Below, piece after piece: positions 7,850 through 61,554 of a stretch of 64,000 bases of DNA. Below the pieces are notes generated by a model that was given only the letters and a program-made list of their open reading frames with translations, was not told the DNA's origin and made no database searches. The stretch's first letter is position 1. Every line of letters begins with the position of its first letter. The position numbers and the translations under genes are program-made. The stretch comes from Blasia pusilla (lineage: Eukaryota), in NCBI GenBank assembly GCA_050084515.1, contig CM114271.1:43834001-43898000 (forward strand), written 5' to 3'.

Positions 7850-8800
7850 CTCAAAATCCAAGTCAAACAATTCAGGTCCATGGCTTTGACCCAACACATG
7901 ACGTCGTGAAGCCTAAAAATGGAAGCAACCGCTAACATACCAAGAGCAAATCCCATCGCACGCTCTCTCTCATCAGCGTTAGGCTCTACCAAGCCATCGC
8001 ACATGAGAATCCCATACAAGCCTGGGGACCACCTTCCTGTAGGCATGTGACGAGGAAAACTCATAAATGTGGGTAGTGCCATCCTAGGTCGCCCACACGG
8101 TTCACCACCGCCATGGGTGACCGATCAATAACCCTCACCACTGAGAAAGTCACCCAAGATCAAGATACTATCCTTGTAAGGCAAGGATCTGCCAGACCGC
8201 ATCATATGCTCGACGTAGAACCTCCCTAGGCAACAAGTTTGTCCACCACAAGCGTGGAAAATGTGCACACAAGCCAACTTGCGCTGCATCCAACAACACC
8301 GCTGGTCTAATCCAAGACCGCATCTCATGAACACTCGCCATCATCCGGGTCCGAGTGTCACCCAACAATGGAACATTCTCGAGCACGTGCTTGATGAACT
8401 GAAGATGTCGTAACACCCGTAACATCTCCCAAAACAATCGAGACCTAGGGTCGTGTAATCCCTCACCACGACCAGCGCGTGTATGACCCTGACATGGACA
8501 TCTAGCAATCACCAAATCCATAGGACCAACCCTCTCAAGGTCCTACGCCCCCAATAATGCAATGTGTGACGGCAAAGCACGCTGGTACCCACGAATAGCT
8601 GATGGCGGCAACAACTCAGAATATCTCCGCATCAACTGACCAATATGTTAGGATGAGACTCTCTCATCCTGACATATTGGTCAAAATGAGGGTTGTCTCA
8701 TCTCGCTCCACATACACGTATCTTCGCACAGGAATACCGGCCTGCAACACTACAGCCAAACTAGTGCTAATCCCACCAAAGAGATCTAACACACAAATGC
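7850..8800 (-). pseudogene. C5 cytosine DNA methyltransferase domain of copy A (frameshifted)
   Basis: VLDLFGGISTS..YVYVE (motif I/II), DLVIARCPCQG (IV), SRLFWEMLRVL, VLENV (VI), DAAQVG..HFPRLWWTN (VIII), ERERAMGF (IX). Boundaries approximate. Confidence 0.9.
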
Positions 8801-11800: not shown

Positions 11801-12913
11801 CGGTAGCACATAGGAGTAACACTACTCTGGGAATCAACGTCAACCCTAACAATGGGCGTGCAAGCAAGAAGCAACGATGGAGGGGATCCAAACACAGGAA
11901 GTCCAACAATAACCCTCCAATGGTAAATGGAAATCAAGGTAACACAATCCACCAAATGTGGCGCCCCTTGAATCCACAGAACCCACCACACAATTCTAAC
12001 GCAATAGCTACTCCGCCGCGGGTCGATGATATGCTAGTCTGACTCACAGCACCTGAAAATATCACCTGCATGGAGAGGCTACACCGTACTATGCGCTAGA
12101 GGTCCATCAACCAATAACCTGAGATGCATAAAGTGCCTAACACATCTCCGAACAACACCAAATGAGCTTCACCAGTGTGTACACTGGCACAGTTAAGAAC
12201 TCAGCAGTTAAGCGTCTACCAGGAAAAATAGCCCAAAGATGGCTGACTAGTTATGCAACACTCAAATCACAAATCCTGCAAAAACTGCCTCACGCCCAAG
12301 CTCCTTACTCTGCCTCTCACGCCCACTGGCCCCGAGATACCACGAGTTGCCTTGAAGCCTCGATTCAGATTCCCACCTCCAACATAGGCCACAAGCCACG
12401 AACATCCACGGCTGAGTACACAATCAGCCCTAACCAGATCCTACTGATCCACAATCGAAGCTACCATCGATCTACTCTAGTTCTTTGAGTGAAATCCGTG
12501 AAAGACCTATTGTCATAAAACACATATAGAATTACATACAATCAAGCCAAACCCACTCCACGATGGGAGAATCCAGGTCGAAGCTTGCGGGAACCACCAT
12601 AGCCAAGAGCTCTACTCACTACCAAGGCTAACTCCCAACGCAACAAGCTCAACTCAAAGAACTAACTATTCTTTGAGTGCACTCCACACTATATCCTCCA
12701 ACCTAAGAGCGGGCCCTACTGGAAAATCACCCTCAACTGAGTAACCCCCAACCCTATGTATGAAACCGCATCTCTACCTAGACACTACGGCCCTACATAA
12801 GGTATGGCCTCTACTAGCACACTATACTCTACGACATAATCCGTATGGTCATGACACATCTCATTGACAATTCAGACCAACAGCGACAGAGTAGTGAGGG
12901 GAGGAACACCGTT

Positions 12914-23250: not shown

Positions 23251-26200
23251 TAATAAAACTCTCACTAACACTTGATGAGAGAGAAGTTTACATAGTGGGT
23301 GATTTTACTATACGATAGTGGTGCACATACAGTGGATCAGAATGGCTCTTTACATTAGCGGGGCCTTTGAATTATGCTCCTCCTAGAACAGAAATGCCTC
23401 CTACCTAAGGTGAATACAATTCACGTCCACAAGACGTTGGAAAATGACAACTATTCACTCACACTTCAGACACATGCTATGAGTCACCATAATGACTTGC
23501 ATGTCCTATTATACCTCATGGTAGCGGATTGCTAGTGTCAATAAAGAAAGGCCACTAGTAATTAGTAACATGTTGATATCTAACAACGCTACCGCAATGA
23601 CAACCTCCATTAATAGTATCTCTATGAAACATAGGTTTATGCTTAATTAACCCTTTTGTAAGAATATTTTCCACCATATCATTGGTGTCACGATCAACTA
23701 CATGTATTAATCCCGTGTGGACCATCTCATCATTAAAATGGTCATGAATATCGATGTTTGTTTTCAATTCACTAAATCTTGTTCTATCTAACAAGGCAAA
23801 GCACTTTGGTTATCACTTTGGCTATTACAATCCTTCCTTGTTGATTCCCTATCTTACTTACAAAATTTCTTAACCTAGTTGCTTCTGTGAGAGCTCTAGT
23901 TGAAGCAATGTACTCAACTTCAATAGTGAATAAGGTAATAGATTTTTTGCTTCTTGCTTTCCCAACATATAGTCGTGTGTTTTTAATAAGAGATAGGAAC
24001 GAAAGGTTGATGTTCAATCCCCAATACTACAACTCCAATCAACATCAAAGTAACCACACAATAGTTATGAATTGCCTTTTCTAGTGTACACAAGTCCTAA
24101 GCTTGCAACCCTTTTAGATATCTAAAAATCCTTTTCATAACAACCCAATCGACTAGACCTGATTTAGCCACATATGTAGAAATCATTCTTTATGGTGGAT
24201 AGGGCGTAGGAGCCAACGGACTATCTTGAGTGTAACTTTGCCCCACCATGTCGGATGAGCTTGAGAATAGGTTCATTGTGTCAGGAACGTTATTTTTGAC
24301 AACTTTCCTGTTGAGGTCTCTCACAACCGGATGACTTGTTGACCAAGTCACCCGCCCTTGGTAACATGTGCGCGCAGGTTACCAGAAGGATAGCTATTTT
24401 TAGGGGAGGAGCCTTTTGGCTCTTCCCAACCCTATATAAGGGAGGAAGATGGCTTTCCCATCCCATCTTTCTCATGTTGGGCCATTGGAGCACCTCTCTT
24501 GTATGTGTGTGAGATAGGACTAGGGTGCTAGCGTCCGGATTCCTTGATATCATAGGGTGGACGAGGCTCGATATGCCGATGTTGATTGAGGAGTGGAGTT
24601 TTAGGCTGGGTGTGCCATTTTTCCTACTCTTTAATTTTACATGAGAAAGATGTCAGGGGGCTGGTGAAAATTCGTTGTTTGCAGGTAGATAAGCGAGTTG
24701 CCTCGGTGGGGAGCCCCTGGAGAACTAGGGTAGAGCAGTAGCATAGTGACGGACAGGAGTGCTCGGGTGTAGCACTCAAGTACAGTAGCGTTGAGAGAAT
24801 GGCGTAGTCAAAAAATGGGAAGGGGAGTATTTTGGTGCAAGAAACCATAGCCGTCGTGAGGGCAGCGAGGCTAGGTCAAGTCTAGGGTTAGGGCGTGGAC
24901 CTCCTTCCCGCATAGGGCGCGGCCCTCCCCCCTCCCCCCCCCTTTCCCCCCCTATTTCGGAACCCCCCCTGCATTAACTGCCCTGCCCATAGGGATGCGG
25001 GCCCCGTAAGTCCCCCAAGGGGCCATTAAGACCCATAGGGACATGGGCCAAGGGCCCAGTCCTTTTAGTTTCCCCCTACGTAGTAAACTTAGTTATGTGG
25101 TTCGGAGTGCCGTGGTCGGCGCTTTCCGGATGTGGTTGGTCAAAAGACGTGGTTGGGAGGGACGAAAGTGGCCGACAGGGTCGACGTGGTTGGAGGTACA
25201 GTCGACATGGTGGAGGCGCGGGTGACGTGATAGACGGGCATGGTTGTGGAGGAGTGGATGTTGACGGTGGAGTAGGTTGGTGGGCGTGATCAGGTTACCC
25301 ATTCGAGTCCCTTTTCTCGCATTTATCTTATGTGATTGAGAGTGTTGGGTATTGGGTAGTAGCTGGTGCTAGGTGGGTGGAGTAATGGTGACGAGTGTAG
25401 ACTCTTTTCATGTATAGCATGTTGGTGGATATACGGTGATTGCGGAGTAGGGGTCGCATGTATGACCCGAGAGTGTCGGTAGGTTAGGTGAGTTAGTGGG
25501 AGGCTCATGGTGAGCCTGAGTGTTGAGTGTGCGTGAGGTTGGGTGTGTCATCACGGGATTGACGTTAGCATAGGTGAACTAGTGAGGAGTGTGGGAGACT
25601 CTCCGTGAGTCTGAGTGCTTAAGTGGGTGAGACAGGGTTGTCATCATGGCGTTCTTCCAGGGTTCGGAAGAACGGGGTAGTGCCAGCAGTAGTAGTGGTG
25701 TGACACGGAGTGGAGTGAGATATCGAGGGGTTACGAGTGAGGAGCTACCGTGACAGCCATCTGTGGCTAGATCGTCATCACTAGACATCGGGTTTGGTGA
25801 TGAGATCGCAGACGGAGGCATTATCACTTGGCAGGAGATGGACGATATGGGCCATTGGGGCATGCGTTGTTTGTCGAGTGTAGTGGGCACCATCGACTTA
25901 GATGATTTTATCTCGGAGTTCGACACGTGGTGCGACTTCCCGGAGATACGGACGCCAACACGATTCAACCCTTTCATGGCATGGAAGGGGTTGTTCTAGC
26001 ACTTGGAGGGTCCTCTGATGGATGACTACATGGAGTTTCGATCACTATATTTAGTAGAGATCGATGCCTGGAGGATGTATTGGGCACCAGGGTATGTGTC
26101 CACTAGTGGTCGCGAGGCATATGATGGGATTATGAGAGGAGAGAGACCCACACCATCAGCCCGGAGATTAGATGGAGAGGAGGGCAGTGAGACTGGCAAT

Positions 26201-28559
26201 ATGGCAGAGACCTCTGGTGGTAGAGGGCCACCCAGCTTTAATCCCACAGTGGAGTTCTTACGACAGTTGGGGAAGAGCTACCAAGATGTACACACCGACA
26301 AGCTGAAGAGTCTACAGGATTTTCAGCGACGATCGGGTGAGAGTGTGAGAGAGGCATTCACGCGCATGAGGAGGTTGATCATTGCTACTTATGGAGTGAC
26401 TAAGGTGCATCAGTCCAATATTGGTATGGGGTTCTCGACCGAGAACTACAGAGGAGAGTCCGAGATGCGATGTTGATTCACACAGCGAAGCCTCCATTGA
26501 AGGTGGTCTTCAAGTTGTCTGAGCGTTTTGAGCTCAACATGAGTAAGGAGCAGGTAGTGACCGCTGGATTTTCTCGAGAGTCGATAGGTCTACGAGCGAC
26601 GGTGATTCTTTATGTGCCACAACGAGCACCTGTACCACGGGAGCGGGCCAATGTGCCCAAAGAGCAGGGCGGGTACCGTGAGCCTATGAGGCAACGACCC
26701 GTACTTGCATATGTTGCCCAACAGGGACCGATGTTGTCTTGTTGGACGTGTGGAGGGGCCCATAGGCAGACAGACTGCACACAACATGGGAGAGGACCAT
26801 GAGCGCCTCCGATTGCTCAAGAGCCACAGAGGATGGCCCCACTAGAGTATCAGTGTGACTATTGCCACAAATATGGTCACACTAGGGATAGATGTTTTGA
26901 CCTTCATCGAGAGGCACGTCCAGAGGTAGGCCGAGGGCTTGGGGGCAGTCGTACTGGAGGAGGTTGGGGGAGTTCTTCCTAGACGTGGTGCTAGAGGACC
27001 ACCACCAGCCAGAGGAGATAAAGCAGGAGCACCAGAGCTGGCACTTCTCTCACACATCGATCAGTTGGAGAAGAGGATTGCTGCCATGACGATGATGCAG
27101 CTCAGGGAAGGCACGAAGCGGCAAGCAGCTAGTGTGGCTCCAAATTCTACCTCTTACCCTGACCCGGGTGAGGATCTCGCTAGTATGGGGTTTATGTGTA
27201 GTGCAACTCAGGTTAAGGCGGTTGCAGTGGTGACTCGGGGTGTTGCAAGACGCACTGAGCCATCCAGAGGTCAAGTTGAGATTGACCCATTGTAGGAGAC
27301 CGATGGGCGGCAGGCCAAGGTTCCACAGTCATTCACATTGTTAGAGGCACTACACACACCATCGATGGTACCTCGACGACCAGCGGTGCCTACAGGTCAG
27401 GAAGGTATGTCGACGTCATGAGGAGTTGGAGTGAAAACTCCTATCTCGGCTCGAGTGGAGTCAGTGTCGACCATAGTGTTAGAGGTGGCCACCAGAGTGA
27501 GCCAGACTCCGCTATTTTCCGCCATAGAGTTTGCGACGTTGGGAGTTAGACCAGCTGAGGTGTTTTGACTGGCCGCCACATTGTGTGAGCGTGGAAAGGT
27601 GATTGCTTCTTGTTCAGAGGTAGTTGAGGAGGTGGTGGACTTGCCCTCAAAGCCGGTGCTCGAGATGTCTCCCACAGAGTCATGGCATGCGGCAGCGGCG
27701 ATGTTGGTAGATATGCCAGCTCGAACGGCCATAGAGCAAGCAGTGGTGACACCTAGAGTGGTGTTACCGGATAACCGAGTTGGAGTATTTTGCTTGGTTA
27801 GTTCGACGGGGATAATATACCACCTGGAGCGTGTCCTACTTGATTCGGGAGATCAACCCTTGATGTTAGGGAAGACGGCATGTTTAGCGTTGGGGTTACG
27901 GAAGGTCGACATTGAGCCTTGTCCCTTAATGATACAGACCTCGATTGGGGGCATGTCACCCACGCTGTATATGACTTGACAGGAAATAGTTTTCAGAGTC
28001 CAGCCAGAGCATGCGATGGATAGTGCTATGGTGCGCACACGTGCAATTATGACACCAGCTGAGTCGTACAATATGTTGGTGAGGAGTACAGTGTTATATC
28101 CCCTAGGATTCATCCTTGACTTCTGGGAGGAGACCATTGCTTCTTGGCGAGCGTGGTGGTCAAGTGACGGCCGGATGAGTCAACTACCCGTGCAGTTTGC
28201 GGGACGAGGTGGTCGATCATGAGATGAGTCTCTGACCACGTTGGCATCTTTCACATGTAGTGTTATCTGGCCAAGAGAGTTGTTGGAGGGGAACGCACAT
28301 GCGGAGGATATCCCAGTAGCGGATAGTCCCACAGAGAGACAGGCCATGGCGGGTGCCTCTTCCCATGTTGGCGAGAGCTCTTCACCATTGTGGGGTACGA
28401 CTCGAGAGCTACAGAGGAGTGCCGACGACCTTGTGAGGCAAGCGTGGAGTCATGCCTTTATCCCGGAGCAGCGAGAGTCACGTGGCGATCGAGCTCCTAG
28501 AGTGGAGACATTGACCCCACTGGATACCACACTTGTTGTGTGGCAGTGTCTAGAGGAGG

Positions 28560-30520
28560 CTGTTAGGGTGTTAGATCTCTTTGGAGGGATTAGCACCGGA
28601 TAAGCTGCAGTATTGCAGGCGGGCATACGGGTGCATTAGTACCTTTATGTGGAGAGAGATGAGATTGCGCGGCGAGTATCATTATGTCACATAACAAGAT
28701 TGATCCAAAGGTATCTTGAGTTGTTGCCGGTATCTATAGTACGGGGATATCAACATACACTACCCGCCGCGCGACATCTCTTTGGTGGGGGCACAAGATC
28801 TGGATAGAGTTAGCACCATTAATTTGGTGATTGTTGGATGGCCATGTCACGGTCATTCATCAGCTGGCCGAGGGTTTGGATTGCAGGATCCGAGGTCAAG
28901 GATATTTTGGGAGATGCTGCGAGTAGTATGACACTTGCAGGAGAGTCAGACATGTTCTCCGGCATACATTTTGGAGAACGTGCCGTTGTTGGGAGACAAT
29001 CGTGCACGTGTGATGACGAGTGTGCATCAGGTGAGGTCCTGGTTGGGACCTGCTGTGTTGTTAGATACAGCGTGAGTTGGATCACGCGCCCATTATCCAC
29101 AACTGTGGTGGATGAACTTCATACCATCAGAGGTACTGAGTCAAGCATACGATGTCCAGAAAGCACCACATATGTCGTGCGCCTACTCTCCTTGAACGTC
29201 AATCTCTAGTATTAAGGAAGCGTACGTTCAGTTGGACACGCTCTCATTGCCGACCTGCACCCAAACACGCACTCTCATTAGTCAGCTTTGGGTCAGTCAC
29301 TCATCCAACCCACCGAGTATTCTACTCAGCGTCTCATCAAGCTCAACCCTCCTTGCTTTCTAGGTTCCAAACACGGCAAGTCCTGCAAGACTTGGAACAG
29401 ACTTTCTGGTTAGTCCAGGAACCTAAAACGGCACTTACGCGCCTGGCGGTCCCAAGTGTCCAATGGACCTTGTGCGAGTTCCTAGCCGAGACCCAAGTAA
29501 TTGAGTTGCAGGTTGGAATCCAAGAGGGATGTCTAAAATCGCCTCACTAGACTTGGTTCAAGTTTTCAAGCCCAACTCCAAACTCTCGATCCGTTCCATG
29601 CCCTTGAGCCGCCCCGTGGCGCCCAAAGTGGGGTTTGAGTCCCAAACACCCTTGGAGACCTTCCCCCTTACTAGTACTTTGGGAGATCTCCAAACACCCC
29701 CTACCTTTGGAAAAAGATGGTCGAGCCCTTCATTGTGGCCCTCAACCTGATTCTACTTACAGTCGTTTTTGGGTTGTTTCTCAGCCGCTGCTTATGCGTT
29801 TTCAGAGATCTTTACTACGTTTGAACTAGCTTTCTATAAGCTTTCCAACGCGTCCTTACTCGTTCCAAACGCATCTTGGCGCTAAAAGTTATGGCCATAA
29901 ATATAGTCGGAAACTCTCAAACGCTGGTGGCGTCCCAAATCCGGATTCCTTCCTTTGGCAACCCACTTCCTAGACTTGACTCCTCTCAAGTCTTGATCCG
30001 CGTTTGGTCCAGGTTTCTCAGTCGCAACCACAACATATGAAACGCGAAGCCTCGCTTGCGTCTCGTCTCTTGTCTCTTCTTCGAGACCACTCCAACGCGC
30101 AAACCATCTTAGCGTGAGCCCGCTAATGTTCCGATGTTCTACTTTGGCACTCGGTTGGTCATGAGGATCGTGACAACATCTCATAGTGGATGCTATTTTA
30201 GGCTCAGGGCGTCGATCTCAGGTGGTGATGCGGGATGATAGACCACCGTTGGCGATGGCCAATTGGGTGGGGGAGTTGAGGGCAGCCTCACCTACGCTGG
30301 TGAGCTTCCCATCATCCCATGCCTTTCATCGGGGAGGGCCACGCATGATTTGGGATGAGGTGACCCGAGCAGTGGAGGAGCCTATTGCAGATGAGCGTGA
30401 GCGCGCCATGGGGTTTGCTATAGGTACTACGGCGGTGCCAGGTATGACTGAGGCATCCCGGAGACAGGTGTTGGGGCAGGCGGTGGACCTCACCTCTCTC
30501 ACATGGATAGTCACCCTAGG
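28560..30520 (+). pseudogene. C5 cytosine methyltransferase domain of copy B, interrupted by a solo LTR
   Basis: VRVLDLFGGISTG, LVIVGWPC, DPRSRIFWEMLRVV, YILENVP, then after the 29173-30175 insertion ERERAMGFAIGTT..RRQVLGQAVD. Confidence 0.88.
29173..30175 (-). mobile_element. ~1-kb solo LTR (family X) inserted in the MTase domain of copy B
   Basis: Reverse-complement homologue of 3264-4295. TSD ACATA/ACATC. Confidence 0.88.
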
Positions 30521-33500
30521 AATGGCTGAGGAGAGACGGATGCGAGTGTCATCCATGCCGTCACGTCCACAAGTTGGACCATTGCCTACAGGGTTTGTAC
30601 AGGCATTGGCGATTGCCGGATGAGGAGAGACAGGCACCCATGGACTTCTTGGGGCGTCGTTCGAGTGGAGAGTGCGAAGGCGGCCAGAGCAATACATGTT
30701 CATTTTTTGGATGTGGAGCATGGGGTAGGAGGTCAGAGTGGAGTGGTTGTTGCGGAGGTGGCTAGAGTTGCTACATAGCAACCAAAGCCGGAGGTTGCGT
30801 CCTCTTCGAGTGAGGTCACGATGAAGACTTGGGAGCTTGTGATAGGTCTCAAGTTGATAGGAGGAGAGCGACGGCAAGTTCATCGGTTTTTGAGAGGGCA
30901 TGTTAGTTGTTTTTCCTTCAATATGAGAGACTTGGGTACGCTGAAGGGTCTCGGTATACGGATTGAGTTGGCTAGTGATACGCCGATCTTTTGTCGACCC
31001 TACAGGTATTCTAATATGGAGCGAGCCTTGATTCAGAGTAGGAGTGAGGAATTTTGGAGGCAAGACTTGTGGAGTTATCACATGGGGAGTATGCATCCGC
31101 CACAGTCATGCCGGCGAAGAAGGATATGTATGGCAATTGGACGGATAGGGGGATGTGTGGAGATTACCGTCCTATCAACCGAAAGACGAGGTCAGACGTA
31201 CTCGGTTAGGGGTCGCCCATTCCAGTTACATACGGATTGGAGCATGTTGGGTCTAGGAGCAGTGCTTACTTATAGAGATGACAAGGAGAGGGAGTTCATT
31301 TTGGATTACGCAAGCCGATCAAACAATATTGCAGAGGCAAAGCACAAGTCCTACAAGGGAAAGTGCTTGGCTGCAGTGTGGGCCGTGGCACAATTTAGGT
31401 GCTATTTATTCGGTAACCCTTTAATACTTATCACTGATCATCAGCCGTTGAGGTGGTTGATGGAGTCCGACAAGCTTACGGAAAAGCTTGCCATGTGGGC
31501 TCTATTACTACAGGAGTATGAGTTTGAGGTGGTTCATAGGCCAGGTCGGGCTGAACTAGGATGCGGATGGATTGAGTCGTAACCCATATCCGAGTCAGAG
31601 AGACCACACAGGAGAGAAGATGGCACGGAGAGAAGATGGTGCCTGGTTGGCATGCATCTGCTTATCTTTGTTGGTTGACTATGGTAGGTCAGCCATAGGT
31701 GATGACTCTAGTGGTGGATTTGGATGATGAGTCTTTGGATCCGAGATCAGTGAGGAGGCGACGGGTGGTCGTGATATCCATGACGACGTGGAGGTTATGG
31801 AGTTCTTGCGCACTAGCGTCATAACGAGCATAGTGAGTGTTAGGGAGCGGGATTGGATCCTACAGAGAGCTAGGAGGTTCAGGTGGGAGGGGACTCATAT
31901 TTTGCGGGTATGGGGAGATGGTAGGATACGAATGGTACCTCATCCTTCCCAACAAGCATGTGTAGTATGACATGCCTATGAGGAGTTGGGGCATTTTGGA
32001 GTAAAGCGTACTTACAGCTTACTCCAAGTTGAGTATTGGTGGCGCGGCATGCATATTGGGGTAGAGCAATTAGTGGCCAGATATTTGGTATGTGAGTGCG
32101 AGTATCCTTCAATGCTCCCACTCCGCACTTACATCCTTTTCCGATTATGGGTTTAGGTTATTGGTGGAGTTTAGACTTTGCAAGACCTTTGCCATTGACG
32201 GGGCATCATCATAGGTACATTTTGGTCATGGTGGAGCATTTCTCCAAGTGGATAGAGTTGGTGGCACTATCGGACAAGGCAAGCAAGGGAACAACTTATG
32301 CGTTTCTAGATCGTGTGCTTAGTCACTTTGGTGCACTGGCGGAGGTATTGACTGACAAGGGTACCAAGTTCAGGGGCGAGTTTCAGGCCTTGTGTGATCA
32401 GGTGCTGATAGATCACCGCACCACGTCCACAGATCATCCTGAGGCGGATGGATTGGCGAAGAAAGTAGTACAGATGGTGAAGAGAGGATTACGTAAGTAT
32501 GGCTTGCAGTGGGGACAGTTGAGGGAGTGAGACCTACAGTTGCCATGGTTGGCTATGGGTTATCGCTTTAGTAGACATGCATCTTTGGCGTCATTTTTAC
32601 CGTACTTTTTGCTCTTCGGGAGAGATCCAGATTTACTTGCAGCTATTCGACGTGACATGGCGGAGGTGTTAGATCTTGATGATCCAGATGTGTGGGTATA
32701 AGCGTGTTCTCATATGGCGGAGATTTTTCGTAGAGTCATGCCTATGGCCTTTGAGAACTTGGCTATTGCTCAACATAGAGATACATTGAGGTACGCGACC
32801 ATTCGTGGAGGAGGTTATCGTCCAAGGATTAGGAGGTTTCATCCTGGAGATTACGTGTATTTACAATAGGCGGCATCCACGACCCTAGATATCACTGCAT
32901 GGCGCACAATCCTACGTGTGCACGAGGTATTACCGACCGAAGTCCTCTTGTTGGAGGGACGGGATGGTATGGTTTGGAAGGATCATGTGCATAATTGTGC
33001 GCCATGTCATCTTCTGAACGTAGACGGGATAGTGGATCCGAGCTTGGTAGTGGTACCTGCAGGCTTGAGGTGTATGTTGTGCGGATCTACGAGGGGTGCA
33101 GCCACCATGTTGGTATGTGATGGTTGTTCTCAGGGGTGGCAAATGTCATGTTTGACCCCCCCCCCTCCTTCTTGATGTAGTTCTCACATGACAATGGATG
33201 TGTCTGAGATGTATATAGGGTAGTAGGTCATGTCAGAGAGATATGATATTGTCTATCTGGAGTTAGGGAGATCCAACTGCCAGCTAGGGGGGCGGTTGTG
33301 TGATCTCCATATATATGTATGAGTTGATTTCTGTACATGTGTGGATCTACCCGTGTGTGGGGAAGATCAGTGTTGTGTGATGTAGATGTGACCAGCGATG
33401 TATGTTGTATAGCGATATGTATGCGCACGACAGTTGTCACATCTGAGTAGCCGATAGGCCGAGATCTATCGTGGATAGGGCGTAAGAGCCAGCGGAGTAT

Positions 33501-36500
33501 CTTGAGTGTAACTTTGTCCCACGGTGTCGGATGAGGTTGAGGATAGGTTCATTGTGTTAGGAAGGTTTTTTCTGATAACTTTCCTGTTGAGGTATTTCAC
33601 AACCGGGTGACTTGTTGACCAGGTCACCCGCCCCTAGTAACCTGTGCATGTAGGTTACCAAGAGGATAGCTTTTTTTAGGGGAAGAGCCTTTTGGCTCTT
33701 CCCAACCCTATATAAGGGAGGAAGATGGCTTTCCCAAGCCATCATTCTCATGTTGGGCCATTGGAGCACCCGTCTTGTATGTGTGTGAGATAGGACTAGG
33801 GTTTTAGCATCTAGGTTCCTTGATAGCGTAGGATGGACAAGGCTCGATATGTCGATGTAGATTGAGGAGTGGAGTTTTAGGCTGGGTGTGCTATTTTTAT
33901 TACTCTTTAATTTTGTTGGTGATCTCTATGTATATGTATGAGTTGATTTTTGTACATGTGTGGATCTACCAGTATGTGGGGAAGATCGGTGTTGTGTGGT
34001 GTAGATGTGACCAGGGATGTATGTTGTGTAGCGATATATATGCGCACGACAACCTTTCTACCTAGTGGGAGTGAGGTGAATGACCATGTGTTATTCAACC
34101 TCATAGATTCAAGCTCTTGTTCAATTTCATCCTTACAGTGAAATGCTTGCTAGCCAAAGAGAGCTTCTTTATAGGTCTTAGGTTCTTTAATATGGACATG
34201 CTTCTCTCATTGACTCAATAATCCATGAGTAAACTTCTCCTTCTCTAGATTCCTAGGGAGTGACTCTTAATGGGCTACATCATATTTCTGCAATAGACTT
34301 GAAACCCTTTTACATCTTCTTGTTCCAACACTTGCTTATGTTGGATTTTTATTGTTGGACTCTATTGAACAATTTTTGGCTTCATCTAAACTTGTTTCAG
34401 TACAACATCAAGAAATGTGTTATTTTTTGGAATCATAATAACATTCGTACTCGTGCTTGGAGAAGAAGGAATTAGTGCAAAAGCTTTACATCCAAAACTT
34501 TTAATGTGATTAAGAACTAGAGGGTCTTTGTGCCAAATCTCATAAGACGTTTTATGACCCTCCTCAACCCTTTTTGGTGCTCACGTTGGAAATATGTTTT
34601 GGAAGTTTTTTGCTCTTACTATCAATTCTCTATGCCTATAAGCCTTTCCAAGACTTCATTGTTCTAGCATTACAAGTATACTACAAGTCGAAGTTTTACT
34701 TTTCCTCTAAGTTACTCCATTATGTTATGGAGTGCGGGGGATTGGAAATTGAAATCGGTGGAAAGATATTCTCCTCCATTATCACATCTTATCAAATTCT
34801 ATTTTTTCTCCCTCACTGGTTGTCTACTAGAGTTCTTATAATAGAAACTTATGAAATACTTTGGATTTCTGCTTTAAAAGATACTTAAAAAAATCATCTA
34901 TGAAAGTTAAGAAATATCTTGCTCTGCTATATGCACATGTGTTTAAGAGTCCACAAACATCATAATGTACTAAGCCAAGACCATCTTCAGCCCTCTTACC
35001 ACCATCTTTGGGGAATTTTTCCCTTACTTGCTTTAATTGGATGGATGCGGTGCAAATAGGAAAGTCATCAATGTCTACTCCCTTGTTTTTGAAATGCTAT
35101 GAGTCTGTCTTGGCTGATGTAGTAGAGTTTCTCATGTCATAATCCATCATTAGTTGTTATAGGGAGAACAATGACGTCCTTGCATGTTGATTTTTTGCTT
35201 GATTGCTAAGGTGTTATGGATTCACCTAATATATACAACTTGTTCTTTGATCTACGAATTGCTATTTTTACTTCAACTTTGTTGTTGAAGGTATAACACG
35301 ATTCTTGATTGTGATGTGTCCTTTTACTTGATCAAATTGATCCACTAAGAATTAATTCCTCTTTAGACTACAAACAAACAACACATTCTGGGATAATAGT
35401 TTATACTCCATTCAACAACGTACTTGATGCACACCGATTGCATTCCTTGAATAAACAAGGTTGTTTCATCTCCCACATACACCATTGATCGCTTATTTAT
35501 ATAACTAGCTTGAAACCTGGTAAATGTGTTGAGGTCATGAGCCATATGTTGAGTAGCTCCTACATCCTCATACCAAGTTATATCTGGAGTACTCAAGAAA
35601 ATTAGGGTTGTTTCATAGACTATATAGCCCTAGACTCTTACTAGAGTCTACCTCTATAGCTTTGGACTTAGCTAGAGAGGCAGAGTTATAGTAAGTAAGG
35701 CAATAAAAACAACATATATCTGTAAGGAATGTGATATGCAACGTAGAGAGATGACAATATCTCTTTAAAGACCTGGGGCCTCTAGATTGTGCCCTTCCTA
35801 GAATAGGATCTTATCGTACACAAAGCAAACGAAATTCATGTCCAAAAGTATTGAGTCACTAACAAGTGACATCTGTCACTGACACATTTGACACATATGT
35901 TGTGAGTCAACAGAATGACGTACCTTGCAAACACATTTGTGTGTCAATTGCAAGCTCAGTGCTAGTCGTCATAGTTACAGTGACAAAACTGTTGTTCATA
36001 CTTGCAATTTTTTTTGTTTTGCGGGAGGGGGAGGGTGTGAAGTCAGAATGGAGTCATACAAAGTGGATAGACATTAATTGGCAGTCGCAACATACTAGCA
36101 AAGTAGTTTCTCTTGGCCAAAATGGACTCAAAACGGAGGCGTGTTAATACCTCAATCCCTTATTGTGAAAAGCCTCTAGAGATGAAGAATGGGCCCATAG
36201 GTTGGTGAAAAGGAAAATAAGGATGATTCATTGGTAAATGAGATACCGACACTAGTCAAAGGAAGATCCACTTGCTATTAGAAGGAAATTAGAAGGAACC
36301 ACTTTAGATAAGGGTATATGAAGCTATTCTTTCCATATTATGCTTATCCTTCAATATATCAAAGAGGATGAGAGGTGTTAAGAAACATTTCTACCTTGGG
36401 TTTCCTTAGAAGACGTCTCAATGAATGGGCAAGTATGGTAATAATTATTGTGGTGTAAGAGCGTGTGTTAGATGGCTCATCCGTGACTAAGAAATATAGA

Positions 36501-47832: not shown

Positions 47833-47932
<100 letters not shown>

Positions 47933-48212
47933 TTCTGACCGAAGCAACTTCTTGCGCTAATTCTTGGACTTGGTTTTGACTTTGATCAAATGCAACTCTC
48001 AACTCTCTCAATTCACAAATCATATCCCTCAAAATTTCTTCCATGATCGCTCCGACTTTCCCCTTACCCTTTACTATCACTCTAATATAAGATCAAGATA
48101 TCCACCGCCAATTTCGCACAATAGAGACTACAAAAGGCAATATTGACGCAATGACTTCATCATAATACTCTTGACCAAACTTCCTCACCATAAACTCTCT
48201 ATATGCTATTTT

Positions 48213-51796: not shown

Positions 51797-54700
51797 TGTC
51801 GTGCGAATCCACATCGTTGACATACCATACTCACATACATACATAACATAGACGAGAGCATACACAAACACAAGTGTACCACAACTGAAATCCGTGAAAG
51901 ATCTACTGTCATAAAACACAAATAGAATCACATACAATCGAGCCAAACCCACTCCACGATGGGAGAATCCAGGTCGAAGCTTGCGGGAACCATCATAGCC
52001 AAGAGCTCTACTCACTACCAAGGCTAACTCCCAACGCAATAGGCTCAACTCAAAGAACTAACTTTTCTTTGAGTGCACTCCATACTATATCTTCCAACCT
52101 AAGAGCGGGCCCTACTGGAAAAGTCACCCTCAACTGAGTAACCCCCAACCTTATGTATGAAACCGCATCTCTACCTAGACACTACGGCCCTACATGAGGT
52201 ATGGCCTCTACTAGCACACTATACTCTACGACATAATCCGTATGGTCATGACAATTGTCGTGCGAATCCACATCGTCATACAATATAGATTGCTGACATA
52301 CCATATTCACATACATACATACATAAAATATACGAGAGCATACACAAACACAAGTGTACCACAACTCGGCCCCCTAAGTGACGGTTAGGTCCCTCTAACT
52401 CCCAGGTAGCCCTATACATCTACTACATGCTATACATCTTCTTGGGTGCACGAATCAGAAGGCCGGGTGCTAGGTTGCCCCATCGTTAGTCTCCTATGTG
52501 TAATCCATATCACGCAAAGATCAAGTCATCTACCTCTCCTAAGTACATCGAGGACAAACCCACCTTCCAATAGGAACAACATCCATACGTGGAGTCAAAC
52601 ACATCATGTGCCAACCCCTAGAACACCGATCACACACCAACATACGGGCTGCGTTACCAGCAAACCCACACAACATGCACCTCAAGCTAGCACGTATCAT
52701 GGCTAAGCTTGGGTCAAGAGTACCATTCACATTTGAAAGATGACATGGTGCACAATTACGCACGTGGTCCTTCCAAACAACTCCATCACGACCCTCGAAC
52801 ATGAGAACTCCAGAAGCTAACATCTCGTGCACTCGTAAAATAGTGCGGCCTGCCGTCACATCCAATATTGTCCATGCAATCTGCTGCAAATAGACATAGT
52901 CCCCCACATGGAACCTACGAATCGATGGTCGATAACCTCCACCCCGAATGGTTGCATACCGCAAAGTATCCCTGTGTTGAGCAATGGCAAGATTCTCAAA
53001 GGCTGTTGGCATAACTCTACGAAAGAGCTCTGCCTGCTGATAACACACTCTCATCCACATCTCTGGGTCATCAAGGTTCACCACCTCACTAGACTTCCGA
53101 CGAATTGCTGCGGGCAAGTCTGGATCTTGGCCGTATAACTGAAAATAAGGTGAAAAGGAAGCCAAGGATGCTTGGCGATCGAACCTATACCCCATGGCAA
53201 ACCATGGCAAATCGAATATCCCAATCTCCAAGATGCGCGTCAGAGGCCATACTTGCGCAATGCCCTCTTCGCCGTCCTGAACCACACGCCAGCCAAACCA
53301 TCCGCCTGGATGATCTCGAGACGTGGTCCGATGATCAATCAACGCCTTGTCACACAAGACCTGAAACTCACCCTAAAACTCTGTACCCTGGTCGGTCAGC
53401 ACTTCAGCTGGTGCACCAAAATGACTAAGCACTCTATCAAGAAACGCATACGCCGTTCCCTCACATGCCTTGTCAGGTAATGCCACCAACTCAATCCACT
53501 TGGATAAGTGCTCCATCATGACCAACACATATCGATGATTTCGTACAGTCAACAGTAACGGTCTCGCAAAGTCCACACTCCAACGATAACCCAACCCCAT
53601 AATAGCCAAGGGGTGTAATTGTGGTGTAGGGGCATTGAATGATGCCCCCATCCGGTCACAAACCATACAACGTGACACCAACTGATGCACCTGAGTATGC
53701 ATGCCACGCCACCAATACTGACCAAGGAATAAGCTATACGTACGCTTTATCCCAAAATGTCCCAACTTCTCATGGGCATTTGCACAATTCGCTCTCTCTG
53801 AGCCAAATACGGCACTACTCGTACTCTACCATCCCCCCACACACGGAGAATATGTGTTCCCTCCAATCGATACCTCTTAGCACGTTGAAGAACACGGTCT
53901 CGCTCCTTGGCACTCACTATGCCTGGCACCCTACTGGTCCGTAGGAACTCCAACACCAACGCATCATCATGAATATCACGCTGATCCGTACCACCATCTC
54001 TAACCTTAGGATCTGAAGGCTAGCCATCTACCCTCTGACTAGAGTAAGATGTCATGTGGTCCTCCATACTAGAGTCCCCTAACCAACATAAAAAGGCGGA
54101 TGCATGCCAACCTCGCACCATCTCCTCATCAACCTCGCCATGCCATCTAGCCCCAGTTGCATCTTCTTGGCTAGTACATGGGTTCCTACTCAACCCATCA
54201 GCATCAAGGTTGGAAACTCTAGGTCTATGTACCACTTGCAAGTCATACTTCGTTAAGATAAGAGCCCACCATGCAAGCTTCCCTGTAAGCTTGTCAGACT
54301 CCATCAACCACTTGAGCAGCTGGTGATCAGTAACAAGGGTAAATTGTCTGCCAAACAAGTAACACCTAAAGTGTGCCATAGCCCACACTACTGCCAAGCA
54401 CTCTCCCTCATATGAACTGTAGCGTGACTCTGCTGCATTATTCGAACGACTTGCATAGGCCACCACAAACTCCATGTGCTCATCATCATGTTGTGTCAAC
54501 ACCGCTCCAAGTCCCAACCTACTCCAATCAATGTGTAACTGAAATGGGCGCCCTCTGATAGGTCTCCTCAAGATAGGCGCCGCCACCAATTGGGCCTTGA
54601 GCTCCACAAAAGCTCTCTCCTAATCATCTCCTCAGTGCCACTCTTGATCTGATTTCAGCAATTAGTTCAAAGGCTTTGCCATAGCACTAAATCCCTTCAC

Positions 54701-57700
54701 ATACCTCTGATAGTAGTTCGCCAATCCCATGAATGCCCGAACTCTGCTCACATCTACCGGACGCAGAATAAGTGCAATAGCCTCCACCTTTGCTTGCTGA
54801 ACTCCCAAACCACCTAGATAGATCACATGACCCAAGTGCTCAACATCCTCATGGAAGAACTTACACTTCCTGGATGCAAACGTAGACCATGAGCTTTCAA
54901 CCGCTCAAACATAATCTGCAAATGTATCTGATGCTCCTCCACCGTGTTACTGAATACCAAGATATCATCAATGTAACACCGAACAAAATCCAACCCTGCT
55001 AGGATCCTGTCCATCACTCTTTGAAACTCGGCAGGTACATTCTTCAACCCAAAGGGTCAGAATTTCCACTGGTACAAACAATCCTTGCCATGAGAGTTGA
55101 CACCCCAAAATGCTGTCTTGGCCTTGTCACTCGCCCGAATCGGCAATTGATGGTATCCTGCCCGAAGATCCAAAGTACTGAAAATCTTTGCCTGTCCCAC
55201 CACATCAAAGATCTCCTCAGGTGTAGGCATGGCATACATATTGGCCTTCGTTTGCCGATTCATAGGAAGGTAATCTCCACACATCCGCCTATCCGTGTAG
55301 TTGCCATGCATATCCTTTTTAGCAGGCATGACAGTGGCTGATGCATACTCTCTATGCAACAACTCCACTAATCCACCCTCCAAAAGGTCCAACGTGCTAC
55401 TCTGAATCAGGTCCCTCTCCATATCACTATATCGGTAGGGACGACGGAAGATTGGCGTATCACTAGCCAAATCAATCCGTATACCGAGTCCAACCAAAGC
55501 ACCCAACTCCTTCATGCTAAAGGCAAAACAACTCCTATAAGCACGTAGGAACTGTGTTAAGCGTCGTTTCTCACCACTCGTAAGCTTGGGCCCAAGTAAT
55601 GGCTCCCAAGTCTCCTCCACTGGCACACTAGAGGGAGAGGATGATGCCATTGGCTGCTATGCAACCCCCTCACAAGATGGTACACCCTTAGCTACACCAT
55701 CATCTGAGCAAATAATTCCTCCACCAGCATGAGCAACCAACTCCACATGCCCAGCCATAACATCTCATTTACTCCAAGGATGCAAAATACTACTTTCCTC
55801 GGCCCCAGCCGATGCCTCTACCATCTCGGTAGCCATCGAACTCATTACAAGGGGTGGAAGACCCACAAACATAGTCCGAAGTCGACGCTGCTCGGCCATA
55901 CCAAGACTCAAAATCCAAGTCAAACAATTCAGGTCCATGGCCTAACCCAACACATGACGTCGTGAAGCCTTAGAAATGGAAGCAACCGCTATCACGCCAG
56001 TAGCAAATCCCATTGCACGCTCTCTCTCATCAGCGTTAGGCTCCACCAACTGTCGCACATGAGAATTCCAAACAAGCCCGGGACCACCTTCCTATAGGCA
56101 TGTGACGAGGGAAAACTCATAAATTTGGGTAGTGCCATCCTAGGCTGGCCCACACAGTTCACCACTGCCATGGGTGACCGATCAATAACCCTCACCACTT
56201 GAGAAAGTCGCCCAGTATCCAAGATACTATCCACTGTAAGGCAAGGATCCTGCTGCAGTGCATCATATGCTCGACGTAGAACCTCCCTAGGCAAAAAGTT
56301 TGTCCACCACAAACGTGGACGATGTGCACGCGAGCCAACTCGCGCTGCATCCAACAACACCGCTGGTCCAATCCAAGACCGCACCTCATGAACACTCGCC
56401 ATCATCCGGGTCCAAGTGTCACCCAACAATGGAACATTCTCTAGAATGTAAGCTGGAGCATGTGCCTGATGAACCCGAAGATGTTGTAACACCCGTAACA
56501 TCTCCCAAAACAATCGAGACCTAGGGTCGTGTAATCCCTCATCACGACTAACACGTGTATGATCCTGACATGGCCATCCAGCAATCACCAAATCCACAAG
56601 ACCAACCCTCTCAAGGTCCTCCGCCCCCAACAATGCAATGTGTGACGGCAAAGCACGTTGGTACCCACAAATAGCTGATGGCGGCAACAACTCAGGATAT
56701 CTCCGCATCCACTGACCAATATGTCGGGATGAGACTCTCTGGGCCGTTTCATCTCATTCCACATACACGTTTCTCCGCATAGGAATATCGGCCTGCAACA
56801 CTGCAGCCAAACCAGTGCTAATCCCACCAAAGAGATGTAACACACAAATGCCCTCCGGCGGATACTGCCATACAATGGGTGTAGTATCCAAAGGGGATAA
56901 CCCAACTGGACCAGAAGTAGGAGTCCGCCATGGGGCCTCCTCTTCCTCGTGAGGTATAACAACCTCACACCAAGCCTCCTGCACCAGGCGATCAGCCTCC
57001 TGCCGTAGTGCACCGCCTGAACTCCAAAGTGGCACATCCAACGATGAGGATGCCATTGCTGCAAAACTAGGGACCTCCTCTACCTCCTCATGCACAGGAG
57101 AATCCATAGCATAAACATTACCCTCCAAAAAGTCTCTTGGCCAAGTGACTACTCCACTAAAACCAGCCACAGATGCTAACACTGTTGGGGAAGAACCTCC
57201 TGGTCGAGCCCCATAAATAAATCTCACAGGAACTTGGCTCATACGTCCATCACCGGACTACCAACCAGATCTATAAGATGCTGTCTCAGTCCAGTAATCC
57301 ATCTGAAAACCCATCGGGTACAATACTGCTCCTCCAACTAGTACATCATACGACTCGGATGATGTGACCACTACAGGTACTCCCAACCGGGAGCTATCAG
57401 TCGCATGATCTGGTCTCAACTGTACAGAGAACTTCTCCCGTGTCATGAATTGAGACCTATCATTGGATCCTCCAAGTGATGTTTGAATCTAGAATGGGCA
57501 AGGCTCAAGCTCTCACCTCCGAATACCCAAACCAATACATGCCGCTTTTCCCAACATCAAAGGTTGGGCACCCGAGTTTAACAAGACTCTATCTGGTCTA
57601 TACACCTGTCCTGTAGGACTCACCAATCGGAATATCCCACTCCGGTTGTCCAACATACATACACCAGGTGTAAGCCTCTCATGATCAATGGCTAGCCGGG

Positions 57701-60700
57701 CTGGTAATGCATCCATCTTTGTCGCTGTTGCCTGCCAAGTAGCATTGGTACTCAATGCTATACCTAACATAGAGGGTTGCTCCACTGCAACACCCTCATC
57801 CACCTCAGCTTGTGTAGCAGTAACACCCCCACGTTCCCACAACGTGGATGCTAGCTGAAATACAAGAGCTAAGTCAACTCCTAAAGCCATCAGCTCCGTG
57901 GCCGAAAACAATGGAGATCCCAACACTGAAGTTGCCATCCGCAATATTGCACTCGATGCTGCATTCGTGTCTACTACACGCAATGTAGATGCCTCAGTCC
58001 CCACTGTCGGCTCAATAGGCTACGTAGGAACCATGGATGGAGTCCTAAGCACCTCAGACAACAAGAATGACTGGGAAAGCCTAGCCTGCCTCCCAGCCTC
58101 ACCCCTCTGTGGGTCCAACTCCAGAGTAGCACCACGTGGCTTTGACGCTCGAGTGGCTCCTCTCGTAACTGCAGCTGATGCCTCAACCTGTGCTGCACTT
58201 GCCATATAAGAGAGATCATACCCTCCATAAGAGGTGGAAGCCCCTACTCCCAAACCTGATCTAAGCTGGATACTAGCCATAGTAGCCAACTTTTGCTCCA
58301 ATTGCTCAATCCTGGCAGCCATAGCTGACTCTGTCGTAGTGGTAGGGGTAGCCACTGTAGGCTCTCCAACCACTGGTCCACCTCTACCATCCCTACCACC
58401 TCTACCACCTCGGCCTCTCGGAGCTACTCTACCACGGCCGCGGCCTGATCTCAACTCTGGATGAAGATCAAAGCAACGCTCTCGAGGATGAGCTCGTCTC
58501 CCGCAATGATCACACTGAGTTGGGCCGGACTGAGGCCCGTCCTCCAAAGTCCATCTCCCATCCTCTTGGGGACAAAACTTCCTAACATGATTACCTCCAT
58601 ATGTCCAACATGACTATCCTTGCTGCGGGGCAGCAAATGAAGGCAATGGTCTCTACGCAAGTGTCCCTCTAGGACCTGACTGAGGTCGTGTGTATCCCCC
58701 ACGACTCCCACTACTACTACAACACTGTGAGATGGGCTGCTGAACACGAGAAGTAGTAGTTGTATCCCTACTTGATGCGGATGTCACCACTCTCTCCTTC
58801 ACCATGTTAAGCTCAATTTTCTCAAATAGAGCAAACACATAAGTCAATGTGGGTGAACCATCACTCATAAGAGTAGCATCACGTACCCTGCGGCGCAACT
58901 CTCTATCCAAGATCCCATACCAAAACTGGATTGCCTGAGCCCCGTCACACCCTGGGTAACTCAAATCAAGCGTCGCATACGAGTGTATGCCTCACGAAGA
59001 CTCTCACCAGTCTTTCGCTCAAATTCGTGAAGACTCCTCAACTTCTCTGTCTTCACTCCCTGATAGTTCTTCTTCAACCTCTTGAAGAACTCTGCAACTG
59101 GGTTGAACGATCGTGGGGCACTAGTACCTCCATTGGTATCCCCACTCCGGCTCGTACTCGTACCACTCAACGTCCGGTTGGTTGGCATAGTAAGAGCACT
59201 ACTACCAATACCACCATGGGTCATAGACACATAGCTTGGAGACCAATATTGTCTCCACGCCTCAATCTTAGCAACATGGTCCTTCCTAAACTCATGGTAA
59301 GCATCCATGGGTGGTCCCTCCAAGTGCTGAAACAACCCCTTCCAAGCCAAGAAGGATGTAAACAACGTGGCATTCCGCAACATCTGCATATCACACCACG
59401 TATTAAACTCCTGCATGAAGTCCTCCAACTCAATGGTGCCCACTACACCGAGTATTGTCGTGGGCCCTTCATGGCCGCATATATCCCGTCCATGTCCCAA
59501 ATCAATGGAGCTGCAACACTCGATAACAACGTAGAAGACTCGGTGTTTGGAACACCCTCGTCCTCCTCTTCATCAACCGTCGGAAGTGGAAAAGGTAGCC
59601 GAGACCTCAATCCAATCCGTGTGAAACCACCACTGTCCGCACCACGTTCCCCAACCAGACCACCAGACAGCTCCGTGATGACCAACGCCGATGCCGCACC
59701 ACCACAAATTACCACCACTAAGTAACCAAGTGACGTCGATGTCGTTGTACTATTCTAGCTCTACTAGCTATGGGTGTAGGCAACCTAACCTGTCAGCACC
59801 ACAAGAAGCCTCCCACGGTCTACTCGTCATCACTCCAGCCTCACTACCGGTAGCACACAGGAGTAATACTACTCTGGAAATCAGCGTTAACCCTAACAAT
59901 GGGCGCGCAAGCAAGAAGCAACGATGGAGGAGATCCAAACACAGAAGTCCAACAACAATCCTCCAATCGCAAATGGAACTCAAGGTAACACAATCCACCA
60001 AACGTGGCGCCCCCTGAATCCACAAAACCCACCATACAATTCTAACGCAATAGCTACTCCGCCGCGGGTCGATGACATGCTAATGGGACTTGCAGCACCT
60101 GAAAATATCACCTGCATGGAGAGGCTACACCGTACTATGCGCTAGAGGTCCATCAACCAAAAAACTTGAGATGCATAAAGCGCCTAACACATCTCCGAAT
60201 AACACCAAATGAGCTACACCAGTGTGTACACTAGCATAGTTAAGAACTCAGCAGTTAAGCTCTAGGAAGAATAGCCCAAATATGGGTGACCAGTTATGCA
60301 ACACTCAAATCAAAAATCCTACAAAAACTGTCTCACGCCCAAGCAAGCAAGCAAGCTTGCTTGCTTGCTCCTTGCTCCTTACTCCGCCTCTCACGCCCAC
60401 TTGCCCCGAGCTACCACCAGTTGCCTCGGAGCCTCAAAACGCCGAGACATGCCCCGTTCGCCATGCTTCGCTATGGAGAGAGGCCCAACCAGGGCGCCCC
60501 CAACGGGATAGGCATCTCCAACAACGAATGAGTCACCAACCAACCAGCCCCTCCGATCCGCTGTCCGCCATAGCCAGACCTTGAGCTAGTCCGCAAAATT
60601 TTGATTAGCAATTACTGCACAAATCCTCAACCAAAATTGAATCTGTTTCAACCAGAGTTCAATTGACCACCATAGCTATCTCTCCACAAAAAATCAGCTA

Positions 60701-61554
60701 CAACCAAGCTCTGTACTCCGAGCTAAAAATCAGACAAACTTGTTGTCCATACACCTCCAGAATCGCATATCCGACAGCGCTTCTGCCCAAATTCATGCAC
60801 GCAGAAATCCGCAACGCTCCACACACTCGAGCAGATAGCTTCACATGAGATCACAATACAAGTAGCAATAGGAACCTCTCACCTGATTTGGATGAACTTC
60901 AACAGAGCTTCCGCACTCCAAGCTCTCCACATCTGAAAACGGTTGAACACGAACCAGAATCTTCAATCCTTGATAACTTCCAACTCCCTTGACAAAATCC
61001 GGCGATCTAAAGCGCATTGGAAAGCTCTCAGCAAGGCGCTTCTTTCCCAACCAACCACATACCAGATTCCCACCTCCAACATAGGCCACAAGCCACGAAC
61101 ATCCACGGCTGAGTACACAATCAGCCCTAACCAGATCCTACTGATCCACTATCGAAGCTACCATCGATCTACTCTAGTTCTTTGAGTGAAATCCGTGAAA
61201 GACCTACTGTCATAAAACACAAATAGAATCACATACAATCGAGCCAGATCCACTCCACGATGGGAGAATCCAGGTCGAAGCTTGCGGGAACCACCATAGC
61301 CAAGAGCTCTACTCACTACCAAGGCTAACTCCCAACGCAACAAGCTCAACTCAAAGAACTAACTGTTCTTTGAGTGCACTCCATACTATATCCTCCAACC
61401 TAAGAGCGGGCCCTATTGGAAAAGTCACCCTCAATTGAGTAATCCCCAACCCTATGTATGAAACCGCATCTCTACCTACACACTACGGCCCTACATAAGG
61501 TATTGCCTCTACTAGCACCCTATACTCTACGACATAATCCGTATGGTCATGACA
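51797..61554 (-). mobile_element. Split-direct-repeat DNMT/PHD gypsy-type retrotransposon (copy C, most complete, same subfamily as A)
   Basis: A1 61187-61554, PPT 52366-52377, B1 52256-52365, A2 51886-52253, B2 51797-51885. gag 58020-59500 with CCHC knuckles and RGG, protease ~57250-57600, MTase 55900-56860, RT with YIDD 54823-55650, RNase H 54020-54607, integrase+PHD 52539-53765. About 16 differences in 368 bp between A1 and A2 by manual count. Confidence 0.95.
55900..56860 (-). pseudogene. C5 cytosine DNA methyltransferase domain of copy C (DNMT3-like motif order)
   Basis: ICVLHLFGGISTGLAAVLQA..YVE; DLVIAGWPCQD; DPRSRLFWEMLRVL; YILENVP; DAARVGSRAHRPRLWWTN; motif IX/X region after frameshifts. 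Confidence 0.92.

Follow-up and report, generated by a model that had tools for sequence, protein, structure and literature searches.

A candidate head-to-tail joint of reverse transcriptase-defined ends retained in split-repeat gypsy-type retroelements of Blasia pusilla

The DNA considered here is a 64-kb stretch (64,000 nucleotides, hereafter the window) of the Blasia pusilla genome (assembly GCA_050084515.1, contig CM114271.1, positions 43,834,001 to 43,898,000 of the forward strand). Comparison of the window with itself revealed three decayed retroelement copies of 9.3-9.9 kb that belong to two families, and within one of them, at positions 33901-33925, two repeat units abut as tactctttaatttt/gttggtgatct (here and below the slash marks the junction, which in this case lies between 33914 and 33915). 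How could such a junction inside an integrated element have been made, and what does it say about the route by which the element entered the chromosome? We consider it probable that in these elements the ends made by reverse transcriptase (RT) and the ends used for integration are offset from one another, and that a joined form of the DNA, probably a circle, is opened at a palindromic site between two repeat units that we call B and A.

Split repeats, the A2/B2 joint and the integrated ends

Copies A and C lie on the minus strand and are 90-96% identical to each other; copy B lies on the plus strand and resembles them in pol only (~72% identity), and the A units of the two families cannot be aligned. 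In all three the order is unit A1, primer-binding site (PBS), internal region, polypurine tract (PPT), B1, A2 and B2, with ~8.5 kb of decayed coding sequence between the primer site and the G-rich tract. Two full identical long terminal repeats (LTRs) around the internal region were found in none of the three copies, as the 5' repeat is A alone and the 3' repeat is B-A-B, and what is present is the pattern of split direct repeats, A1...B1A2B2, by which elements of the DIRS order are recognized. When each unit was compared with the whole window by sensitive BLAST, no B unit was found upstream of A1 in any of the three copies, and the search returned the expected copies and one 45-nt fragment at 14673-14716, and nothing else. 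The A1/A2 and B1/B2 identities are alike within each copy (89.2/92.7, 95.7/96.6 and 95.9/93.4%), as they should be if the members of each pair were identical at insertion, all four units having come from two identical LTRs.

The A2/B2 junction can be placed to the base in copy B as follows: the similarity between A1 and A2 (24194-24638 versus 33470-33914, 89.2%) stops at ...TAATTTT, beyond which A1 has A (24639) where A2 has G; the similarity between B1 and B2 (33295-33432 versus 33915-34051, 92.7%) starts at GTTG, which in B1 is preceded by the G of the tract AGGGGGGCG and in B2 by T. Because these outside bases differ, both the A and the B boundaries are unambiguous. In copies A and C the A2/B2 junction reads GGATTTCA/GTTGTGG, the boundary of A1 with the primer site GGATTTCA/CTCAAAGAACTA, and the boundary of the PPT with B1 GGGGG(G or C)CGA/GTTGTGG. 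The A before the slash belongs at once to the end of unit A, to that of the PPT and to the 13-nt PBS complement (below), so the joint in these two copies is exact or one base off, depending on where RNase H cuts. With this proviso, A2 touches B2 with zero bases gained or lost in 3/3 copies, and in each the joint consists of the base that precedes the PBS and the base that follows the PPT. Such a zero-gap coincidence in two families with ~72% identity in pol and unalignable A units is far more than chance would give, and the observation is real and non-random. It supports the view that A2/B2 is a retained U5-U3 head-to-tail joint of an RT-defined LTR composed of B+A, and with it the blunt joining of RT-defined ends that a preliminary description of this locus, made from the letters of the window, had proposed. 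That description had also stated that the joined ends lack a conserved TG..CA; this is true of the A end of copy B, which finishes in TTTT, but A terminates in CA in copies A and C, and B begins GTTG in all three copies, with TG at its third and fourth bases.

The RT-defined ends named above depend on the predicted functions of the primer site and the PPT, which lie beside the 5' and the 3' repeat, respectively, as in Ty3/gypsy elements. In copy B the sequence at 24639-24652 is a perfect complement of 24464-24477, which lies inside A1. The complementary stretch measures 14 nt in this copy and 13 nt in the other two, and its sequence differs between the families; its distance from the A end is 161-162 nt throughout, and a TATA-like motif lies 30-31 nt upstream of it; in no copy did any of 2000 shuffles of A1 reach such a complement. 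Predicted leader RNAs pair their 5' end with the PBS (z-scores -2.5 and -2.7), which is partly by construction, as the RNA start was chosen beforehand. This complementarity suggests that the element may prime itself, as Tf1 is known to do, and passages of Neumann et al. 2019 (PMC6317226) predict self-priming for the plant Tcn1 clade.

The ends by which the element sits in the chromosome lie elsewhere, at the left of A1 and the right of B2, and have the form TGTC...GACA: copies A and C read TGTCATGACC...GCACGACA, and copy B ends at the right in ...GCGCACGACA (...GACA), its left end being deleted. An exact 4-bp target-site duplication (TSD), GATG, encloses copy A (the chance of this at fixed positions is 1/256). 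Copy C has none, so that a TSD was seen in one of the two copies that could be used; TG..CA termini with a short TSD are what one expects of Ty3/gypsy elements. Copy B is unusable for this purpose because its left edge was deleted. It interrupts a decayed Copia polyprotein on the minus strand (~23500-24190 and 34052-36000), in which the right flank of copy B has Pfam matches to SH3_retrovirus and Pol_BBD and the left flank has none; from motifs in the translations, we take the RT segment of this Copia to be missing across the insertion. This loss, together with the absence of the first 35 nt from A1 of copy B, points to a deletion that removed the left edge of the copy. On account of this deletion the empty site could not be recovered from the Copia remnant, and the left edge gives no TSD.

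At the third boundary, between B1 and A2, the copies read GACA-AT-TGTC (C), GATA-TT-TGTC (A) and GACA-GT-TGTC (B), that is, CA-NN-TG with inverted arms, which is the form of a retroviral circle junction. The central dinucleotide (AT, TT or GT) varies between the copies. The last ~40 nt of B are 82-84% conserved across the two families, and the rest of B and all of A are unalignable; this conserved end fits what might be expected of an integrase-binding end. TSDs at the RT-defined ends, which would speak against a joining of those ends, were seen in 0/3 copies. The preliminary description was right in its core, namely that RT-defined ends were joined and integration took place elsewhere, and is partly supported. 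It had further supposed that the ends are ligated rather than processed by integrase. This part does not hold as worded, as the element encodes a DDE integrase (below) and the GACA-NN-TGTC palindrome at B1/A2 would mark its site of action; we amend it such that integrase would act at the internal palindrome.

The coding content was surveyed by running Pfam on stop-to-stop open reading frames (ORFs), 133 in number, from both strands of the three copies. Copies A and C have matches to RVT_1, RT_RNaseH, Integrase_H2C2 and rve in that order, followed by a C-terminal PHD, and the decayed copy B has only RT_RNaseH, rve and a weak PHD match. The pol order RT-RNase H-DDE integrase of Ty3/gypsy elements is thus present, and the intact relatives have it likewise. 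Copies A and C also carry in the pol frame, upstream of RT, a piece of a DNMT3-like C5 DNA_methylase, for which decayed copy B gave no Pfam match. The RNase H ORF has 323 related proteins at E<=1e-10 among 887 candidates, and liverworts supply its top named matches, at 80% identity in Calypogeia fissa, 78% in Marchantia polymorpha (where the protein also has a DNMT domain) and 76% in Riccia sorocarpa. Next come matches at 54-61% from Klebsormidium nitens, which may or may not be the published KnitGypsy-Dnmt3 elements of that alga, and Closterium is represented as well. For the upstream ORF, 30 related proteins were found at E<=1e-5, among them ones from Sphagnum fallax and many from Marchantia. 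In database relatives that are intact, the domains are arranged DNMT-RT-RNase H-integrase-PHD, and the methylase of one of them, the Marchantia protein P0125, matches chains of DNMT3A/3B structures. About 900 residues upstream of DNMT in intact Marchantia and Sphagnum relatives (P0125, P0127, P0136 and P0121) gave no Pfam match; some such relatives are labelled CCHC-type or gag by their database sources. By these comparisons, the element would appear to belong to a Ty3/gypsy-type lineage with a DNMT3-like methylase and a PHD-tailed DDE integrase, for which liverworts, a moss and Klebsormidium supply the nearest named relatives.

A candidate cycle and its rivals

The layout would follow from a cycle of this kind: Transcription would start ~30 nt downstream of the TATA box in A1, the first 13-14 nt of the RNA would fold onto the site right after A1 and prime the minus strand as in Tf1, and plus-strand synthesis would begin from the G-rich tract that adjoins B1 on its upstream side. 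Strand transfer by the standard scheme, which is the established retroviral model, would then produce a linear cDNA B-A-internal-B-A, in which the RT-defined LTR is B+A, the left end is GTTG... and the right end is ...TTTCA (copies A and C) or ...ATTTT (the family of copy B). With the PBS after A1 and the PPT before B1, standard strand transfer gives only this product. The integrated form A-internal-B-A-B would be the same molecule with its ends joined and re-opened at B-A, which would make A2/B2 the U5-U3 joint. The ends would be joined head to tail, most simply into a 2-LTR circle, by a host end-joining ligase or by an end-to-end jump of RT, and integrase would act on GACA-NN-TGTC at the B-A boundary of the LTR beside the primer site. 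A cut after CA on both strands would yield the permuted linear form with recessed CA-3'OH ends, to be inserted with a 4-bp staggered cut. The outcome would be TG..CA at the left of A1 and the right of B2, with B1/A2 as the uncut twin of the opened site and the termini as its two halves. The circle that the preliminary description had called obligatory is likely but not strictly required: a joined intermediate is supported, and a head-to-tail concatemer or an RT end-to-end template switch would give the same joint. There is a precedent for the cleavage step in Delelis et al. 2005 (PMC1180852), in which foamy-virus integrase is reported to cleave 2-LTR circles. The window also supplies an internal control, a conventional gypsy element at 43059-50042 that has the ordinary LTR-internal-LTR layout, TG..CA ends and a 5-bp TSD.

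Several points weigh against this cycle. Copy C has no TSD in spite of its clean TG..CA ends (GAGT or GGAG versus TAGA at the flanks 51797 and 61555). In copies A and C the A-B joint itself reads CA-GT-TG, so integrase might recognize that joint too, and the exclusive use of the B-A site of the PBS-side LTR needs explaining; survival of only the replication-competent product might account for it. Where transcription starts, where the poly(A) site lies and where RNase H cuts all enter the argument as predictions, and the basis is three old, decayed copies in one window, in which neither a circle nor a concatemer was seen. Dead-end products that the cycle predicts (A-int-B, A-B-A-int-B and A-B units of non-recombination origin) were unseen in the 64-kb window, which is too small to judge them.

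Among the rivals, we give the best but still low standing to one that keeps the permuted integration and changes only the maker of the joint: RT would jump from the finished U5 end to the point where U3 begins, on the same cDNA or on a different one, with neither a host ligase nor a closed circle. The joint is exact and indel-free in 3/3 copies, with a possible one-base overlap (A) in copies A and C, and no ligase can be identified in the sequence (the ~900 aa upstream of DNMT in the intact relatives being without a Pfam match), both of which suit such a jump; it would, however, have to halt, or be cut, precisely at the B-A site. Precise joints are also common among products of non-homologous end joining (NHEJ), precise 2-LTR joints of retroviruses included. 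This bears also on an expectation of the preliminary description, that small NHEJ-type indels would be found at A2/B2 and not at B1/A2: indels were found at A2/B2 in 0/3 copies, and it is the B1/A2 dinucleotide that varies, a result that lends NHEJ no support, though three old copies cannot decide the matter. Less probable again is that the joint is inherited rather than made anew, a long transcript that runs into B2 being copied as in DIRS or Ngaro elements with the internal B1-A2 restoring the missing ends. B is rich in TG/TA and might contain poly(A) signals, and the layout matches that given for DIRS-order elements, 'A-coding region-B-A-B', in passages of de Mendoza et al. 2018 (PMC5890265). 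But with the PBS after A1 and the PPT before B1, standard transfers would never copy the RNA tail past A2, and we could construct by reasoning no RT-only path to A-int-B-A-B.

Two further explanations we regard as very improbable, and to about the same degree. Site-specific recombination of a circle by a tyrosine recombinase of the DIRS, Ngaro or PAT type would account for the split direct repeats A1...B1A2B2; however, none of the 133 ORFs (both strands, three copies) matches Phage_integrase at E<=0.01, all three copies have a DDE integrase (H2C2 and rve), the ends are TG..CA with a 4-bp TSD in copy A, and the relatives have the order DNMT-RT-RH-IN-PHD, so this explanation is already contradicted. 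Ordinary LTR elements might instead have been rearranged, by truncation of the 5' LTR and tandem duplication of B, or misassembled, and the left edge of copy B does carry a deletion. Against this stand the same layout in 3/3 copies of two families with differing sequences and flanks, the TSD of copy A that encloses A1...B2, and Klebsormidium relatives reported to have the same layout in passages of PMC5890265. We therefore retain offset RT and integration ends, with opening of a joined form at the B-A palindrome, as the probable reading.

Feature coordinates and neighboring sequences

Table 1. Coordinates in the window of the three split-repeat copies and their parts.
Feature	Position	Strand	Details
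Copy A	2964..12856	minus	A1 12856-12490; PBS from 12490/12489; B1 4586-4477; NN 4476-4475
Copy A, 3' part		minus	A2 4474-3070, with nested unit 3264-4296 inside; B2 3069-2964
Copy A domains		minus	DNMT (8171-8542), RT, RNase H, rve, PHD
Copy A TSD, left	12857..12860	minus	GATG
Copy A TSD, right	2960..2963	minus	GATG
Copy C	51797..61554	minus	A1 61554-61187; PBS from 61187/61186; PPT 52377-52366
Copy C, 3' part		minus	B1 52365-52256; NN 52255-52254; A2 52253-51886; B2 51885-51797 (21-nt gap relative to B1)
Copy C domains		minus	DNMT 55995-56753; RT 54826-55656; RNase H 54023-54619; integrase 53376-53825; PHD within 52542-53372
Copy B A1	24194..24638	plus	5'-truncated, without the first 35 nt of A2; TATATAA 24433-24439
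Copy B primer-complement CATCTTTCTCATGT	24464-24477	plus	inside A1
Copy B self-priming primer-binding site (predicted) ACATGAGAAAGATG	24639..24652	plus	directly 3' of A1
Copy B internal region	24639..33294	plus	RT_RNaseH 30779-31579; rve 32096-32527; PHD 32870-33172
Nested ~1 kb unit in copy B interior	29173-30176	minus	
Copy B polypurine tract AGGGGGGCG	33286..33294	plus	directly 5' of B1
Copy B B1	33295..33432	plus	3' end ...GCGCACGACA
Copy B B1-A2 junction	33429..33438	plus	GACA-GT-TGTC, CA-NN-TG integrase-type palindrome
Copy B A2	33435..33914	plus	begins TGTCAC, finishes TAATTTT
Copy B A2-B2 junction	33914..33915	plus	last A base joined to first B base
Copy B B2	33915..34051	plus	right integrated end ...CGACA, then Copia flank

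Three nested units of ~1.03 kb with TG..CA ends lie in the window, one on the plus strand in A2 of copy A and one on the minus strand in copy B (Table 1), the third on the plus strand at 48212-49215 in the conventional gypsy element. Their termini, TGTCRCG...GCGCACGACA, resemble the ends of the split-repeat element, and they are flanked by the repeats CACT, ATGT and ATTTT, an additional base being present in two of the three. As candidates for solo A-B units they were rejected, for they align to neither A nor B and have no internal repeats. A candidate fourth A-B joint at 14380-14716 was rejected as well: it contains an isolated 45-nt match (91%) on the plus strand at 14673-14716 to the right end of B in the family of copy B, ending in GCGCACGACA, and nothing upstream of these 45 nt can be aligned beyond chance (202/300 and 273/300 shuffles reach the observed score).

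The conventional Ty3/gypsy element is on the minus strand and has 352-bp LTRs with the ends TGTAAC...GTTACA, and the TSD CATCA; it encodes protease, RT, RNase H, integrase and SH3_Tf2-1 domains, and by its sequence the primer site is presumably of the tRNA-Met kind. An ORF at 39606-40163 on the plus strand has a DnaJ domain (E 1.4e-13) and is possibly part of a host gene between transposons. Long CT/AG dinucleotide repeats are found at 12915-13008, beside the left flank of copy A, and at 47838-47928.

Comparison with known elements

RT ends and integrase ends are offset in every copy, so that a joined intermediate would seem to belong to the ordinary cycle of an element that carries integrase. 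Might this be true of the whole Gypsy-Dnmt3 lineage of streptophyte algae, liverworts and mosses, such that integration is obligatorily from the head-to-tail 2-LTR form at a palindromic att site inside the LTR, and each copy is a circular permutation that keeps the U5-U3 joint? We put the chances of this general statement at about even. If it is true, the lineage would be a functioning example from nature of the circle-junction integration model, which has been given up for retroviruses, and would parallel by convergence the split repeats of retroelements with a tyrosine recombinase. If confirmed, it would offer a natural system for integrase cleavage of internal palindromes and would mean that either class of integration enzyme can be accompanied by split direct repeats; the annotation of bryophyte and charophyte genomes would be affected, because LTR finders that expect two equal LTRs would mis-call such elements.

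The closest published counterpart is KnitGypsy-Dnmt3 of Klebsormidium nitens, for which the legend to Fig. 4c of de Mendoza et al. 2018 (PMC5890265) gives a DIRS repeat structure with gypsy domains. As far as passages of that paper go, the likeness comprises a DNMT3-type methylase in the pol frame, gypsy-type domains and a DIRS-like repeat layout, and the difference is that the nearest named relatives of the element in the window are in liverworts (76-80%), plus a moss for the upstream ORF. Those passages, supplementary text included, give no primer site, PPT, termini, TSD or mechanism for KnitGypsy-Dnmt3. Within the parts of the literature consulted on integrase-encoding elements with split repeats or permuted LTRs, the remark in that legend was the only one found, with no account of the end-offset anatomy, and on this footing the element type seems to have been reported once before, in Klebsormidium, without a mechanism.

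With the DIRS order (Ngaro, PAT and VIPER, and also SymbioDIRS-Dnmt3) the window element shares the arrangement A1-internal-B1-A2-B2, B1-A2 as the joined termini, and an implied joined or circular intermediate. DIRS-order elements encode a tyrosine recombinase and are not known to make a TSD, whereas the element described here has a DDE integrase, TG..CA ends and, in copy A, a 4-bp TSD. The Tf1/sushi elements and the plant Tcn1 clade are like it in that the primer site is complementary to the predicted transcript start and not to a tRNA (passages of PMC6317226), but unlike it they have a conventional LTR-int-LTR structure.

The likeness to the retroviral 2-LTR circle lies in the head-to-tail LTR-LTR joint and in a CA-NN-TG palindrome as a possible integrase substrate; work on this circle junction and integrase is reportedly that of Panganiban and Temin in 1984. 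Textbook LTR retroelements integrate by the same ends that RT has made, and their LTR-LTR circles lead no further; those of retroviruses are commonly taken for by-products. The retroviral palindrome coincides with the LTR-LTR joint, whereas in the window element it lies inside the LTR, between B and A, and the LTR-LTR joint is uncut in every integrated copy.

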